Source: Escherichia phage FV3
Sequence record: NC_019517.1
DNA: 64,000 bases
Strand: one strand, 5' to 3'
Shown here piece by piece: positions 31,594 to 46,269 of this stretch (position 1 is its first letter; every line of letters begins with the position of its first letter). The notes beneath the pieces were generated by a model. That model saw nothing but the letters and a program-made list of their open reading frames with translations, had not been told where the DNA came from and ran no database searches. Made by a program: the position numbers and the translations under genes.

Positions 31594-31810
31594 AAGGGGT
31601 ATGGAGATACACCTGAGTGAACAGGGTGAACAACCGAACCTTTAGCTATGGCATTAGCATGGCGAAGCGGACGGGTGACGAAAGAGGGGCCGGAGGACAC
31701 CAGTCACTGCCATATGGTATATGGGTGATAACCTGAAGAGTCTGAATAAGTGTTTAAGTACCAGTCAGAGGAAAAGGTGAATGGTAGCCGAAGGGGGAGG
31801 GGGGTTTCTT
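31594..31810. other. G/purine-rich non-coding segment, candidate structured RNA
   Basis: No ORF >=60 aa on either strand; composition unlike flanking AT-rich DNA; ends in G-run GGGGGAGGGGGG; strand undetermined. Confidence 0.3.
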
Positions 31811-32589
31811 GTATCTTTAATTTGTATACTTTATATACACTTGTAAACCAATTCAATTAGAATATGGATACCACACAAAGTGGATAGAGGCAAATATTCC
31901 CTATTAAACTTGAATTATTTATAGAAAATACCACAACACTGCTTAAGTCTTTGATTTTACACACAAATATTACAAATATCCTGCCTCTATATTTAACATA
32001 CCTGTAACATATTCCATACTCTCCCTGATTGATCAATTCCCCAACTACATCCCCATATTTTCCCTTCCTGTACTACCCCTGCCCCGCCGGGAGTCCCGTC
32101 ATATCTGGCTTTCCAGCAAATATCACACCCACAAATATCATTGCCTGAAGAGGGTTTCATCCCATAATACCTGCCTTACCCGAAGAGCGCTTCATACACC
32201 ACGTAAATTTTTTAATTGACCTGCAATTTTCCTGCAGACCCACCCCCTGCCCAGCCGGAGAGGTTGGCTTTTCCCACACAGGCCTGAAGAGTCAGCCAGA
32301 AATATCTGAAGGGGGTCCAGTTCTACCACGATTTTGACCTGACCTACAGGAGCGCTGCCAGGCGGACGAAATGGGAATACTTCTCATTCTTATAACAATT
32401 CTCAAATATCGGGGCAGTGAGGCAAATTAATAGGCGAGGCCGTTCACACAGTGGCACAACATTTGCAAGCTATTTTGCGGGGGTGAATGAGAATACCTAT
32501 CATTGTGAGAATAGTTATCATTACGGGCAATTTAACATAATACCCATTATGCGCACCACTGGCGATACATACAGGGATTGATAACATGG

Positions 32590-33230
32590 GTTACTGTTTA
32601 CGCATATAACAATTGTATTTCTTATTATTTGTGGGGGATATAGTTAGCAACCAATAGATTAGTTATTAACCTGCGGACTTCTGACCGTCTAGACGTCCAA
32701 ACGCCCACACCACAAGGATTATACATACACTCCTGCATGTAAACAGGGCCGCAAAAATGCTACCATACCAGTTTGTAAATTTTCCATGCAGCACTTGACA
32801 AAGAGGAGAAAAACTTGTCTGACACACTGGACACCTTATACACCTTATACACTTTCGATACAATAACGATTGTTATTATTTCATGTTTCACTGTTCACGT
32901 ATAGATTGTTCCTGCATAGACTGTTTACGCCTGGATAGTTTACACCTTGACAGTTTACGCAGATATGATAAGCCATGACATTCGTTTGCATAGTTGCCTT
33001 ATTGTTACAGGTAAAACAATTACATTGTTAACTATTTCTTATCTTTCTCTTAGTCATCTAATGATTCCAGTCAGTATAGTTATGTACAGTAAACATTAGA
33101 CGACTAAATATTTCTCTGATTATAGTAACCTATCGTGACAATTTCTAACTGTTTACGAAAAATGTTGACACCTGGGCAGGTTTATGTTATGCAGTTTGTA
33201 CGAATAATTATTTTGTACAGGTATTGACTA
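32590..33230. repeat. iteron-like degenerate direct repeats (TGTTTACGC family) in non-coding strand-switch region
   Basis: CTGTTTACGC / TGTTCACG / GTTTACAC / AGTTTACGC / TGTTTACG / GTTTGTACG copies, densest 32889-32960; AT-rich; no convincing ORFs. Confidence 0.4.
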
Positions 33231-33605
33231 TTCCGTTATTCTGTGGTTGGAATAAATACTTTGCAGGCTATAGAATGGTGATCGTACGTGGATTCTGAGA
33301 TCTGTCGGCTATAGTTACACCCGATTTTTCACGTAGGACACGCTTTTTGGTTTGTGTAAGTGTATGACTTATAAGGGTTTTTAATTGTTGACAGTATACT
33401 GAAGATGTGCATCAGGTTAAATTTTGTGCAATAGCTGCATTACGTGCAATTTTGGGAGAGAAAACGGGTAAAAATAGCACCGCTACCACACAATGAAAGG
33501 TTATGCAATAGCTATTTTACATGTATATTTGTACAGTGTGCGGGATTGATGGCTCGTCAATTATTCCACTTGTCAGGTAGGGCCGTTTATGGTAGGAAAA
33601 GAGCA

Positions 33606-33633
33606 GACAAAAAGAAAGGGGCCTAAGCCCCCT
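33606..33633 (-). terminator. intrinsic terminator (leftward transcripts)
   Basis: GGGGGC-TTA-GGCCCC hairpin followed by U-run on minus strand, just after stop of 33647..33910. Confidence 0.45.
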
Positions 33634-33646
33634 TGATAATGTTGTA

Positions 33647-33973: not shown

Positions 33974-34246
33974 TTACTTGCGGCGGCAAAATTCAAGCGT
34001 TTTTAATTGATAATCTTCCTCAGCCTGGAGTACAACCGCCTCGATCATTTCGTTGGCATTGGTGAAGCCATACCCTTTAGCGAACTCATCCGCGCCACCT
34101 TCGTGATCATGTTCTGCGTTCATCGCTTCCACAAAATGGAATTCCAGGTTATTGAGATAAGGGCTTGATGTTCCGTCCTCTTTTTCGATGAGATCCCAAA
34201 TAGCATTAAAACGTGATTCGACTTCTTGGTTAATCCAGCTTGACAC
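33974..34246 (-). CDS. hypothetical acidic protein
   Basis: 90-aa ORF. Confidence 0.5.
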   Translation of the reverse strand: MSSWINQEVESRFNAIWDLIEKEDGTSSPYLNNLEFHFVEAMNAEHDHEGGADEFAKGYGFTNANEMIEAVVLQAEEDYQLKTLEFCRRK

Positions 34247-34586
34247 GGCGTTTTCCTCTCTTCTGGTTGTTGTGTGGGCACTTTTGCCCCTTCAAGGTAA
34301 ATGCTACCCCACCACCCGGCAGATGTCAACGGTTTTTATAGTTTTTTATATAACGGGCACCCCTGGTGATTGTCTCCCCCCGTCGCCAGGTGCCGCCCGT
34401 GAAACAAGTATAACAAAAAACAGGACCATTGCAAGCCCTGTTTATTATCTTAAAACCAGGTGCCAACCGTTTCCAATAGATCACTGACTATCAGGACAAT
34501 ACTGATCAGCACATACCTAACCATAAAGGGAAAGATCGCCAACATTGCCGCCACGATCCCCATGGTGATAATTATCTTTCTCATGA

Positions 34587-42741: not shown

Positions 42742-42920
42742 CTAGTTAAAATTATTTTTTGGGTAGAATTCTCCAGCCGCCGCCCCTGCCAGGTTGACCA
42801 TCATTTTTTCGTACTCTTCTTTATGTTCCAACGCTTCCGCCATAGCCTTTTCAACCAGGGCGATAGCCTCAGCGTTATTAATAGCTACATTTTCCAGGGG
42901 GATCCTATTACCTTTCATTT
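42742..42920 (-). CDS. small protein (~58 aa)
   Basis: ATG at 42920 after GAGGAGG RBS; not in ORF track. Confidence 0.4.
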
Positions 42921-43083
42921 TTGTACCTCCTCTTCAATTGTTACCTATCCTATAACATAGGCCCACCAGGCTGGCCCCGCCAGGTTGCAGCGGTTAGCGC
43001 ATCAGGTTAGAATTTTTTTTTTTTTGAAAAGTGTTGACAGCGGCCCCGCCAGGTGGCACAATATACATATCGAAAGGACGGCA

Positions 43084-43290
43084 GGCACCGGTGACGGGGG
43101 AGACAACCACCGGGGATGGGCGCTGCATGAAATGAGAACGATTATCATTATCGTCTAAAAATTTATGCAAAAACTTCTTGCTTTCTTTGTCCTGTGTGAT
43201 ACTATAATAACAAGCCGGGGCAGTAGGGGCCGGGAGACAATCACCGGGGGTGCCCGTTATTCTGCAAACGAGAATGATTATCATTCAAAA
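43084..43290. repeat. imperfect ~70-bp direct repeat pair
   Basis: Both copies share GGGAGACAA(C/T)CACCGGGG and GAGAA(C/T)GATTATCATT. Confidence 0.4.
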
Positions 43291-43399
43291 TTCTAAATGA
43301 GAACTTTTCGCATTTCATAAATTTAGTTAGCATGCTAATTACCTACCGTGACAATTCTATATAAAATAATACCTCATAAAATATTCCCATATAGAAATT

Positions 43400-43600
43400 T
43401 TAAAAATCCATTTCTGAAAACGAAAAATCGCTTTCGTTCCCAAAAATTTTAGATCTGGTGCTGGACCAATTTCAAGAAAATCCGATTCAGAAAACGAAAA
43501 ACAGATCGAGTACCGAAAAATTTATCGAGAAAAATTTTCAGAAAATCCAATCTTTGAAATGAAAAACAGATCGAGTACTGAGAGAGATGTATCAAAACTT
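43400..43600. repeat. tandem imperfect direct repeats (~65-75 bp period, three copies)
   Basis: Units begin AAAATCC(A/G)(T/A)T..GAAA(A/T)(C/G)GAAAAA; two units also share CAGATCGAGTAC; further AAATCCATTTT motifs at 43750-43860. Confidence 0.45.
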
Positions 43601-43891
43601 ACTGATAATAATTAACTTATTGTCATAAAAGGCCGAAAGTAAGTTGGGAAAGTTCTGGTAGAAGGGTGAGAGTGTGTGCGGAAAATCTGGAACGGTGATT
43701 TGAAGTACGGTGCGAACGATAGGATGATCAGCACAGCTTATCGTGCCTGTCTTGAAAAAATCCATTTTAGTTTTCGATCCATTTTCTGATTTTCTAAGAA
43801 TTTTAAAATATCCGGCCAGGTAAAATATCAAAAGGAGGAAATCCATTTTAGAAATCCTCCTTATGTTTGATGTGCCAGGGATTTTCAAGTA

Positions 43892-44221
43892 TCAACTATC
43901 TTTGTTTTTAGGCTTGTACATGCGTAGAGGTATAGTTTTTATAACATTCCATCTCCCCAACCCTTCCCAGTTCCAGTTGTGGGCGTGATACCCAGTTATG
44001 CATGCACTGCTGGAGTGATCATAGGCATAGGAGAACGCTATGCGTAACAGATGAGGCCAGTCTTTCCACGGCTGTGGTCCGTAAGCCTTTCTCCAACACC
44101 GACACAAACTAAATGTCTCAAGAATAGGCAGGATAACAAATCCATACACCACCACCAAGATGATCAGCGCAATGATTGTCAGGAATACATACCCTGCAGT
44201 TGAAATGATGATCTCTGTCAT
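43892..44221 (-). CDS. membrane protein
   Basis: 109 aa, N-terminal TM segment. Confidence 0.5.
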   Translation of the reverse strand: MTEIIISTAGYVFLTIIALIILVVVYGFVILPILETFSLCRCWRKAYGPQPWKDWPHLLRIAFSYAYDHSSSACITGYHAHNWNWEGLGRWNVIKTIPLRMYKPKNKDS

Positions 44222-45711: not shown

Positions 45712-46269
45712 TCAACACTTTTTGTACTCCACCACAATCACATCAATGTCTGTGGTGGCAAGATTAATGACGTCTTCCACGTGTTCCCACTTTAGACCAC
45801 CAATACCGCATCCGATTTTAGGAATGTAGAACGGTAATGACATACCTTTGAATACCTCGTTGACTCGCTCAAAGCCTTTCATGATTGAGAAGTATTCAGC
45901 ATTGGGCCCTGGGTAGAACTGGGTATACAGGTTGATTCCATATACGACCCTGTTCTTGGCAAAATGCTCCCAACAAGAAAACATGCCCAGCTTGTCTAGA
46001 TTACCATAAGCAGTCTCTTTGTCGGCTGCCAGTGCTTGAGGGAACTCACGGGCAATATCTTTCGCTATACCTGCACCCATTGTGTGAAAGCAGTTACAAC
46101 CGTGGATCATGTGGCCTGACCCTTTCTTGAAAATGGAGATTAGATCTCCACCTATAGTATCAATAATCACGGTATGCCAGCTCCTCTTCCGCAATTTCAA
46201 AAAACTCAGTCCAGCACTGTGGCATATTGGAGTTACCGAAGTGGCTTTCATAGTAAAGGTTCTCACCAC
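45712..46269 (-). CDS. macro-domain protein (ADP-ribose binding/processing)
   Basis: IIDTIGGDL...MIHGCNCFHTMGAGIAKDI and IPKIGCGIGGL match macro-domain Gly-rich motifs; N-terminus overlaps upstream ORF, start uncertain. Confidence 0.6.
   Translation of the reverse strand: MVRTFTMKATSVTPICHSAGLSFLKLRKRSWHTVIIDTIGGDLISIFKKGSGHMIHGCNCFHTMGAGIAKDIAREFPQALAADKETAYGNLDKLGMFSCWEHFAKNRVVYGINLYTQFYPGPNAEYFSIMKGFERVNEVFKGMSLPFYIPKIGCGIGGLKWEHVEDVINLATTDIDVIVVEYKKC

Follow-up and report, generated by a model that had tools for sequence, protein, structure and literature searches.

Between two clusters of small leftward genes of Escherichia phage FV3 (record NC_019517.1) lies a gap of ~0.9 kb, at positions 42960-43890 of the 64,000-nucleotide stretch of DNA that was analysed as a whole and is here called the window, in which predicted promoters, hairpins, palindromes and repeats succeed each other in an order that recurs in distant relatives. 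The gap is probably a replication origin or a regulatory RNA locus, and the reading towards which we lean, although tentatively, is that it controls in cis an early, non-coding unit transcribed rightward, and acts as an iteron-type replication origin that is activated by transcription and gated by a dimeric protein binding to the DNA. This reading is drawn by analogy, because the order of the parts, namely promoters opposed to the flanking genes, regularly spaced dyad sites, a minimum of duplex stability and direct repeats with a common core, appears to match that of known phage origins. The initial annotation had left the choice between a second regulatory or replication region and a small-RNA locus. 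In this respect, the gap does look like a regulatory or replication region endowed with promoter-proximal RNAs, while no single one of these alternatives is proven.

According to the proposed mechanism, the host sigma-70 RNA polymerase would start at two tandem promoters, P1 and P2, against the direction of the flanking genes, and each transcript would open with a GC-rich 5' hairpin, probably stabilising the RNA or recognised by a protein. The transcripts would then cross one to three 19-bp palindromic operators (AATGAGAATnATTCTCATT), and the dimeric protein bound there, either host Fur or a phage protein, would gate read-through. Transcription would subsequently enter the most easily melted DNA of the window, where three units of ~66 bp with the core GATCGAGTAC, together with further short repeats, may assemble the replication proteins, and a bidirectional terminator hairpin would close the unit. 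We infer both the replication role and the identity of the protein at the palindromes.

An imperfect direct repeat pair of ~70 bp, first noticed in the initial annotation, is indeed present and above chance, but its description has to be refined, as the two copies are part of two modules of ~90 nt that align over their whole length. In each module, a sigma-70-type promoter directed rightward is followed by a GC-rich 5' hairpin, whose loop GAGACAAYCACC is conserved, and by a 19-bp palindrome of the family AATGAGAATnATTCTCATT. The modules share the 18-mer GGGAGACAA(C/T)CACCGGGG (GGGAGACAAYCACCGGGG) at 43098-43115 and 43232-43249, and a third copy with one mismatch is found on the minus strand at 34361-34378. 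In other words, the window holds three matches against 0.02 expected, a number reached in none of 100 shuffles. Promoter P1 (43034..43062, plus strand, opposite to the flanking genes) is predicted from TTGACA, a 17-nt spacer, CACAAT and a TG upstream of the -10, scoring 10/12 in the consensus scan; across eight relatives the -35 hexamer never changes and the -10 does so at a single position (CACAAT/CAAAAT). Promoter P2 (43178..43208, plus strand) is read from the sequence as TTGCTT, a 16-nt spacer and TACTAT with an upstream TG, or alternatively with a perfect TATAAT at 19-nt spacing. It lies below the threshold of the consensus scan, is nearly invariant in the relatives (varying at 43195 and 43199) and is homologous to the promoter ahead of the same hairpin element in other genera. 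The activity of both promoters is predicted from consensus and conservation. Just upstream of the -35 of the hairpin promoter, all non-Vequintavirus relatives (L004:1419-1433; 20+ loci) carry a GTAAA-N5-GTAAA direct repeat that is absent from the window; we take it to be the consensus form of a CpxR-type site, with a spacing typical of OmpR/PhoB-type regulators.

The first hairpin (copy 1, 43076..43126, plus strand) has GC-rich stems and the loop GGGAGACAACCACC, starts ~14 nt after the -10 of P1 and folds with a minimum free energy (MFE) of -26.4 kcal/mol (z -2.5); in phage phita32 it bears two C-to-T changes, both yielding G.U pairs. Copy 2 (43212..43259, plus strand), which is the copy conserved across genera, consists of GGGCA/UGCCC and CCGG/CCGG stems with the loop GAGACAATCA, and its folding is no better than that of shuffles (z -0.3). 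Copy 3 (34335..34412, minus strand), a GAGACAATCACC hairpin module without the palindrome, follows TTGCAA, a 17-nt spacer and TATACT, reaches an MFE of -27.2 kcal/mol (z -3.5) and shows a CCUGG/CCAGG stem in place of CCGG/CCGG. Copy 3 is directly followed by another promoter (TTGACA, 17-nt spacer, TAGCAT) and by the leftward gene 33974..34246(-), so that the hairpin would also serve as an mRNA leader. In every copy collected, that is in the window, in the GenBank loci and in 21 IMG/VR loci on contigs of 37-152 kb, the element starts 5-14 nt past the -10 box, which argues that it forms the 5' end of a transcript.

In a covariation alignment of copy-2-type elements from genera other than Vequintavirus, the six-pair lower stem is 95.8% paired and one of its pairs occurs as AU (4), GC (3), GU (2) and unpaired or other (3). 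The inner stem, whose register drifts between lineages, comes in pair-preserving variants: CCGG/CCGG, CCUGG/CCAGG, GCG/CGC, UCG/CGA and the G.U variants of phita32 and of locus L147. RNAalifold, run on the mixed hairpin alignment, returned no consensus structure. Taken together, the case for a real RNA structure is no more than suggestive. Conservation is higher in the loop GAGACAAWCACC than in the stems, suggesting recognition by a protein or by a partner nucleic acid; no complementary target was found in the 64-kb window beyond the elements themselves. When the loop pattern was searched in 185,579 genomes of bacteria and archaea, the matches were scattered over unrelated phyla and, with an estimate of ~280 chance matches, the search is uninformative. 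The covariance and tandem-repeat analyses that the initial annotation had proposed were both run: the tandem units discussed below were not listed by Tandem Repeats Finder, and no Rfam model matched. Specifically, Rfam 15 gave no match in the window at gathering thresholds, just noise at E>4 within 42900-43950, and nothing at E<=0.1 in nine related loci.

A G-quadruplex in the hairpin RNAs was considered and rejected: copy 2 has four G-runs, but by eye these are not conserved in other genera. tRNA searches found none. In the record of Klebsiella phage K45PH128C2 (OY978796.1, L002:1420-1573), a tRNA-Ile and a tRNA-Met are annotated on the minus strand, the latter coinciding exactly with the element made up of hairpin and palindrome; ARAGORN and Rfam both find no tRNA at this place, and the annotation is probably misplaced. 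A further observation concerns the sister genera, where another element, CGCCACCCCACGGCGAAAAGGCGGGGCUAAC...GGAAGGUGGAUCGCCGGUAG, which is promoter-driven, almost invariant and absent from the window, stands in the place of copy 1. For this element (L004:1321-1405 in GAP31; homologues in L002, L003, L125-L130, L132, L133, L139, L142, L143 and L148), RNAalifold yields a consensus structure, three pairs covary and a pseudoknot (CCACC with GGUGG) is possible; it matches no Rfam family and looks like an undescribed structured phage RNA.

The third part of each module is a palindrome. The repeated GAGAA(C/T)GATTATCATT at 43134-43149 and 43270-43285 contains, from 43134 and 43270, the motif GAGAAYGATTATCATT, which is half of a 19-bp palindrome resembling a Fur box. 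The palindromic operator O1 (43131..43152) reads AATGAGAACGATTATCATT (43131-43149), overlaps the Fur match GAGAACGATTATCATTATC and is nearly invariant in eight relatives, a single position (43141) varying between A and G. O2 (43264..43288), with the sequence AACGAGAATGATTATCATT and its palindrome at 43267-43285, includes two overlapping Fur matches of 14/19 and 15/19. Its 16-mer GAGAATGATTATCATT is identical in four aligned genomes belonging to Vequintavirus, Mydovirus, Seunavirus and Phapecoctavirus, other relatives having variants such as GAGAATGATTCTCATT and GATAATGATTATCATT; searched in IMG/VR, the same 16-mer hit at least 120 unrelated contigs and proved too unspecific. O3 (43296..43314; AATGAGAACTTTTCGCATT), 29 bp past O2, is a degenerate member. 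The family consensus AATGAGAATnATTCTCATT derives from 51 distinct sites in 21 related loci, and at <=3 mismatches the window contains five sites against 0.07 expected, all in two non-coding regions. In relatives, one to five palindromes are arrayed in a row, for the most part with 29 bp from start to start. The two halves deviate independently from the consensus, often with G/A oppositions that would break an RNA helix, and the palindromes thus behave as DNA sites of a dimeric protein. The second cluster (32370..32522; AATGGGAATACTTCTCATT, AATGAGAATACCTATCATT and TGTGAGAATAGTTATCATT) lies in another non-coding stretch. That stretch, 31600-33640, is a second long portion without convincing open reading frames (ORFs), where rightward and leftward gene blocks converge, and the second most AT-rich part of the window; two CAAATATCA repeats at 32118-32145 are like those at the right end of the gap.

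The enterobacterial Fur box has the consensus GATAATGATAATCATTATC with the 7-1-7 core TGATAATnATTATCA. Matches to it at 43134-43152 (17/19) and 43270-43288 (15/19) are the two best in the 64 kb, where ~0.4 matches of at least 15/19 are expected by chance (0.33 at 15/19 and 0.07 at 16/19 in a Markov simulation). The phage sites share the 7-1-7 dyad, as TGAGAATnATTATCA in the window and with a perfect TGATAATGATTATCA core in phage 4MG, and the hosts are all Enterobacterales, save for one record assigned to Acinetobacter, probably by mistake. Unlike the Fur box, the phage family has G more often than T at half-site position 6 (70 cases vs 31), and its arrays follow a 29-bp period instead of the 6-bp hexamer register of Fur. 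Fur usually acts over promoters; in the window, the end of O1 lies 26-29 bp upstream of the -35 of P2, and just a weak promoter-like site on the minus strand (43318-43290) overlaps O3. The location of the sites ~70 nt past the transcription starts, and the G at a position where Fur favours T, both speak against a classical Fur operator. In conclusion, the palindromes closely resemble a Fur box, host Fur and a phage protein both being candidate binders.

Immediately past the palindromes, the DNA becomes the most AT-rich and the least stable duplex of the window, making 43312..43411 a candidate DNA-unwinding element. Specifically, the least stable 50-mer starts at 43357 (-50.1 vs a mean of -66.5, sd 3.9) and the least stable 100-mer at 43312, while the segment 43261-43660, 70% AT vs 56.9% (sd 2.9), is the most AT-rich 400 bp in the window. 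This DNA runs into the tandem units of ~66 bp U1-U3 (43386..43584). The three tandem units of ~65-75 bp described initially are well founded: they align at 43394-43442, 43468-43516 and 43533-43581, are 63-80% identical and are spaced by 74 and 65 nt. Each comprises an A/T tract, AAAATCC(A/G)WT and GAAAACGAAAAA, to which U2 and U3 add GATCGAGTAC, the core that is the part conserved in other Vequintavirinae genera. Tandem Repeats Finder misses the units because they are too degenerate, detecting just a 14-nt micro-repeat. All four exact matches to AAAATCCRWTY in the 64 kb fall in the gap (43403, 43477, 43542 and 43757), against 0.68 expected, and none of 100 shuffles reaches four.

The possibility that the tandem units act as structured RNA was examined and ruled out, with the exception of Vequintavirus U1. 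There is no strand asymmetry in the folding of the units, the minus strand being better in 12 of 21 units from seven phages (mean MFE -10.7 vs -10.8 kcal/mol), and the 389-nt plus-strand RNA downstream folds no better than shuffles (z +0.85), so that the units would work as DNA and not as structured RNA. The exception, the minus strand of U1, forms a 17-pair hairpin followed by a U-run (43447-43410, z -3.5 to -4.2).

At the right-hand side of the gap, a conserved repeat block (43756..43832) gathers AAAATCCATTT, GATCCATTTTCTGA (GATCCATTTT) and AAAATATC, the last occurring twice 17 bp apart. The initial annotation had seen in this part further motifs ending in a palindrome. The motifs are there, but the palindrome is better described as a bidirectional terminator-type hairpin than as another repeat. 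Indeed, AGGAGGAAATCCATTTTAGAAATCCTCCT (43833..43861) forms an AGGAGGA/TCCTCCT stem with T-rich tails on both strands (UUUUGAUAUUUU on the minus and UUAUGUUUG on the plus strand) and a z of ~-3.2 on either. The terminator scan does not list it because its loop of 15 nt is longer than typical; the features of an intrinsic (rho-independent) terminator, that is a stable stem-loop, a U-rich tail and pairing kept in relatives, are all present, and phage slur16 shows a compensatory G:C to A:T change in the stem (AGGAGA/TCTCCT). We read this hairpin as a bidirectional terminator, ending both the right-hand leftward operon and the rightward non-coding transcripts.

The conservation of these parts was evaluated in an alignment (A2) of eight Vequintavirus genomes. 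Invariant columns amount to 74-94% at 43000-43550 and to 72-84% at 43750-43850, and drop to 34-50% in a fast-evolving spacer (43585..43755) that also contains indels of 1-2 nt. As this spacer provides an internal yardstick of relaxed evolution, the rest of the block is under strong purifying selection as DNA or RNA. At larger distances, BLAST matches are confined to 43231-43314 (Seunavirus GAP31, 4MG and PVP-SE1; Mydovirus; Certrevirus CR3 and POP18; Phapecoctavirus anhysbys and phiWec181), and the loci of Seunavirus, Mydovirus, Certrevirus and Phapecoctavirus that were read show the whole architecture in synteny, as a gap of ~1 kb between leftward genes. Here rightward promoters are followed by a structured RNA-like element, the GAGACAA hairpin element, palindromes, AT-rich units, a variable stretch and short repeats. 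The AT-rich units carry the core CGATCGAGAACC in other Vequintavirinae genera, and the short repeats past the variable stretch, CCATTTCGA and AAATATC, are analogous to the right-hand block; Phapecoctavirus has the same order of parts, but different repeat units at the position of the tandem units. The same architecture is thus common to two phage subfamilies. The comparison of copy number among related phages, advised in the initial annotation, gives one to five palindromes and three to six tandem units.

The statement that the gap lacks any convincing ORF stands, as no conserved ORF was found in 42960-43890. The alternative that small protein-coding genes explain the region draws on two ORFs that are open in the window, 42994..43284(-) and 43592..43888(-), on the match of the former to phrog_14993 and on the annotation of ORFs here in some GenBank records. 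However, in five of seven relatives the second ORF has lost its start codon, is frameshifted or stops early, its frame being open in WM and YN3, while the first is frameshifted in three of seven. Moreover, first, second and third codon positions carry similar numbers of substitutions (12/12/13 and 44/36/47) with no third-position excess, and the annotated ORFs shift position from record to record, two records (isim and phita32) having none inside the gap. The phrog_14993 match simply records that other annotators have called this ORF on almost identical DNA. To this alternative we attach next to no credence, and annotators are advised to make no further ORF calls in the gap.

How do these parts bear on a transcription-activated, iteron-type origin? 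In support of it, an array of sites (the palindromes at 43131, 43267 and 43296, and the three units) adjoins the AT-rich element 43312-43411, and the predicted promoters P1 and P2 point towards this same stability minimum. A number of observations, on the other hand, weigh against it. The best single G-C skew breakpoint in the co-oriented block 34.6-64 kb falls at 43.3-43.7 kb, where the slope changes from -0.029 to -0.057 per base; its sign is opposite to that of a bidirectional origin, transcription is a confounding factor, and a boundary between transcription units would account for it to the same degree. The authors of the rV5 genome paper, by skew analysis, did not locate the origin (PMC3606486). 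The ten flanking proteins fall in PHROG families of unknown function, plus one macro-domain protein, and there is no initiator candidate among these ten. The palindromes recur at 32.4 kb and the hairpin also stands ahead of ordinary genes at 34.4 kb, so that the modules are not origin-specific. As possible Fur operators, the palindromes are placed ~70 nt downstream of the P1 and P2 starts, and not over the -35 and -10. The covariation score of the hairpin, with one covarying pair only, was reached by 119 of 500 shuffles, and the sister genera have a clearly structured RNA in the same unit, which favours an RNA locus. By eye, there is no convincing DnaA box (TTATNCACA), no systematic scan having been run. 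Apart from the question of an origin, the keto skew changes sign near 41.8 kb, and the skew changes suggest a difference in transcription history or class between the two gene clusters.

The origin, a non-coding RNA locus and a regulatory boundary are not mutually exclusive. A possible explanation, held only slightly less likely than the origin, is that P1 and P2 each give rise to a regulatory RNA, small or long, the 5' loop of which (GAGACAAYCACC) would be functional, by protein binding or target pairing, with the palindromes as operators making synthesis conditional and the AT-rich repeats as the body or 3' part of the transcript, or unrelated to it. The constant position of the hairpin just past a sigma-70 -10 box in every copy and genus, the conservation of its loop above the stems, the well-paired lower stem with AU, GC and GU at one position, the pair-preserving variation of the inner stem and the promoter-driven element with a consensus structure at the copy-1 position of sister genera all speak for such RNAs, and a functional non-coding RNA, pseudo-ToxI, is known from the Certrevirus phage phiTE, which belongs to the same subfamily (PMC3475682). 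Nonetheless, no Rfam family matches, RNAalifold finds no consensus on the mixed alignment, the covariation score is within that of shuffles and copy 2 alone folds like shuffled sequence; neither hairpin is followed by an intrinsic terminator, the loop has no complementary target in the window and the long downstream RNA is unstructured. The strong conservation of the DNA-type motifs on the right side would be left unexplained. The specific identity of a ToxI-like antitoxin mimic was discarded, the phiTE locus being a different one and showing no similarity (score 18; shuffle mean 16, maximum 27). Pseudo-ToxI is likewise a non-coding tandem repeat in an intergenic position of a phage of the same subfamily, and is expressed during infection; it differs in sitting at phiTE_202/203 beside tRNA genes and in its near-identical repeats of 36 nt, as opposed to the degenerate ~66-bp units found here.

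Rather unlikely, in our judgement, is that the gap serves as a transcription-unit boundary and regulatory hub between two leftward early and middle operons. It would then contain one or more terminators for the right operon, a promoter for the left one and Fur-like sites letting the phage read or titrate host regulators, and its rightward promoters would act mainly by transcriptional interference or as divergent partners. The G-C skew breakpoint, the terminator hairpin at 43833-43861 with its compensatory change, the minus-strand hairpin and U-run of U1, the Fur-consensus matches and the presumed CpxR-like repeat upstream of the homologous promoter in all non-Vequintavirus relatives agree with this. 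Yet a boundary takes tens of bases and not 0.9 kb of near-invariant DNA, the three to six copies of the GATCGAGAACC core and the other repeat families find no explanation, the units of other genera are not consistently terminator-like and a handful of sites per genome would presumably be few for the titration of Fur. Far less probable is a packaging (pac) recognition site for headful packaging. The genomes of rV5-like phages are circularly permuted and terminally redundant (PMC3606486; PMC3475682), so that a pac site must exist somewhere, and several records start in or near the region, the first base of phiWec189 (LC739538.1) corresponding to window position 43130. These starts are scattered, however, and are more simply, and probably, assembly breaks at an internal repeat; no terminase gene was found among the flanking genes, and a pac site would not be expected to contain promoters and operators. 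Other records starting within or near the region are PQ002170.1, ON602736.1 and MG065644.1, and one Salmonella phage record labels 80 bp here as 'attL'.

CRISPR arrays consist of near-identical direct repeats of 23-50 bp separated by unique spacers of similar length. The initial verdict that the gap is not such an array was correct: the units are ~66 bp long, 63-80% identical and contiguous, with no repeat-spacer regularity, and the sole match to a CRISPR-repeat model is at chance level (E=5.9) and outside the repeats, at 43889-43912.

With respect to its genomic context, the phage is an rV5-like (Vequintavirus) myophage. A query of 1,051 bases around the region matches 202 phage records, 112 of them over at least 80% of its length; full-length matches are almost all rV5-like Escherichia phages (Vequintavirus), PQ014731 being the best (97%). 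The gap is flanked on the left by the last gene of one cluster, 42742..42918(-), and on the right by the first gene of the other, 43892..44221(-). The macro-domain protein mentioned above, of 185 aa, is encoded at 45712-46269(-), 2 kb to the right (Pfam PF01661, E=1.7e-5; PHROG 335, named 'phosphatase'). At the left border, between the promoter region of the left cluster (~42960-43000) and P1, a homopolymer T13 tract (43013..43025) ranges from 7 to 15 T among the eight Vequintavirus genomes, in three of which 1-4 A stand in for some of the T; this variable poly-T between divergent promoters is possibly slippage-prone or UP-element-like. In the same area, at 42966 (A2 columns 49-96), a segment of 48 bp is present in YN3, rV5_ev147, WalterGehring and isim, and missing from the window and WM. 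On its minus strand, TTGCAA, a 17-nt spacer and TATAGG make up a candidate promoter of the left-hand gene cluster. GC-rich repeats containing CCAGG (42962-43054) look like the characteristic spacers of the early promoters of the phage.

The gap is a real feature that is unexplained in the literature searched. The rV5 genome paper draws a 'non-coding' box without ORFs, possibly the present gap (PMC3606486), and the literature found on rV5-like phages gave no account of an origin, a small RNA or a Fur box. Its class, a cis-acting phage control or origin region, is familiar, whereas the combination of parts appears undescribed. Few coliphages are isolated as frequently as those of the rV5-like group (Vequintavirinae and Phapecoctavirus), and their use in therapy and biocontrol is under wide consideration. 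In this context, the gap, the best-conserved non-coding DNA examined in these genomes, offers a concrete candidate origin, together with candidate promoter-proximal phage RNAs and a family of candidate operators resembling the host Fur box. A bolder, and improbable, conjecture is that a virulent phage family has wired host-regulator sites, Fur-type in all genera and CpxR-type in the sister genera, into a conserved promoter-hairpin module controlling a non-coding RNA and/or the origin, thereby reading the iron and envelope-stress status of the host to time or throttle replication. If Fur, or a phage mimic of it, does bind, this would be one of the few instances in which a virulent phage ties its replication or RNA synthesis to the iron physiology of the host.

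Among known systems, the hairpins recall the put RNAs of phage HK022 and similar leader hairpins, in that a conserved stem-loop RNA lies just past early promoters, in several copies per genome and in one case before a long operon; two of the three copies in the window, however, precede no genes, and a role in antitermination would be pure analogy. For the favoured reading of a transcription-activated, iteron-type origin, the closest parallels come from known phage origins. In T4 ori(uvsY) and ori(34) and in the primary origin of T7, promoters precede an unwinding element; the T7 origin, in particular, combines the promoters phi1.1A/1.1B with an AT-rich region. As in these cases, in the window one or two promoters, tandem as in T7, would fire into AT-rich DNA of a virulent phage that has no classical initiator gene nearby. 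The arrangement in the window departs from them in having promoters of the host sigma-70 type, and not dependent on MotA or on T7 RNA polymerase, in transcripts beginning with a conserved hairpin, and in the palindromes and iteron-like units that are interposed. Iteron origins are represented by lambda ori, where four dyad-symmetric, 19-bp O-binding iterons stand beside an AT-rich stretch, by P1 oriR and by T4 oriE, which joins an early transcript to iterons. In contrast to these, no initiator gene overlaps or adjoins the array in the window, the palindromes recur at the second locus (32.4 kb) and the sequences are unrelated to those of known origins. What the gap would have in common with iteron origins is its arrangement: dyad sites of 19 bp, regularly spaced by 29 bp beside an AT-rich minimum, in a copy number that varies from one to five among relatives, accompanied by further direct repeats.

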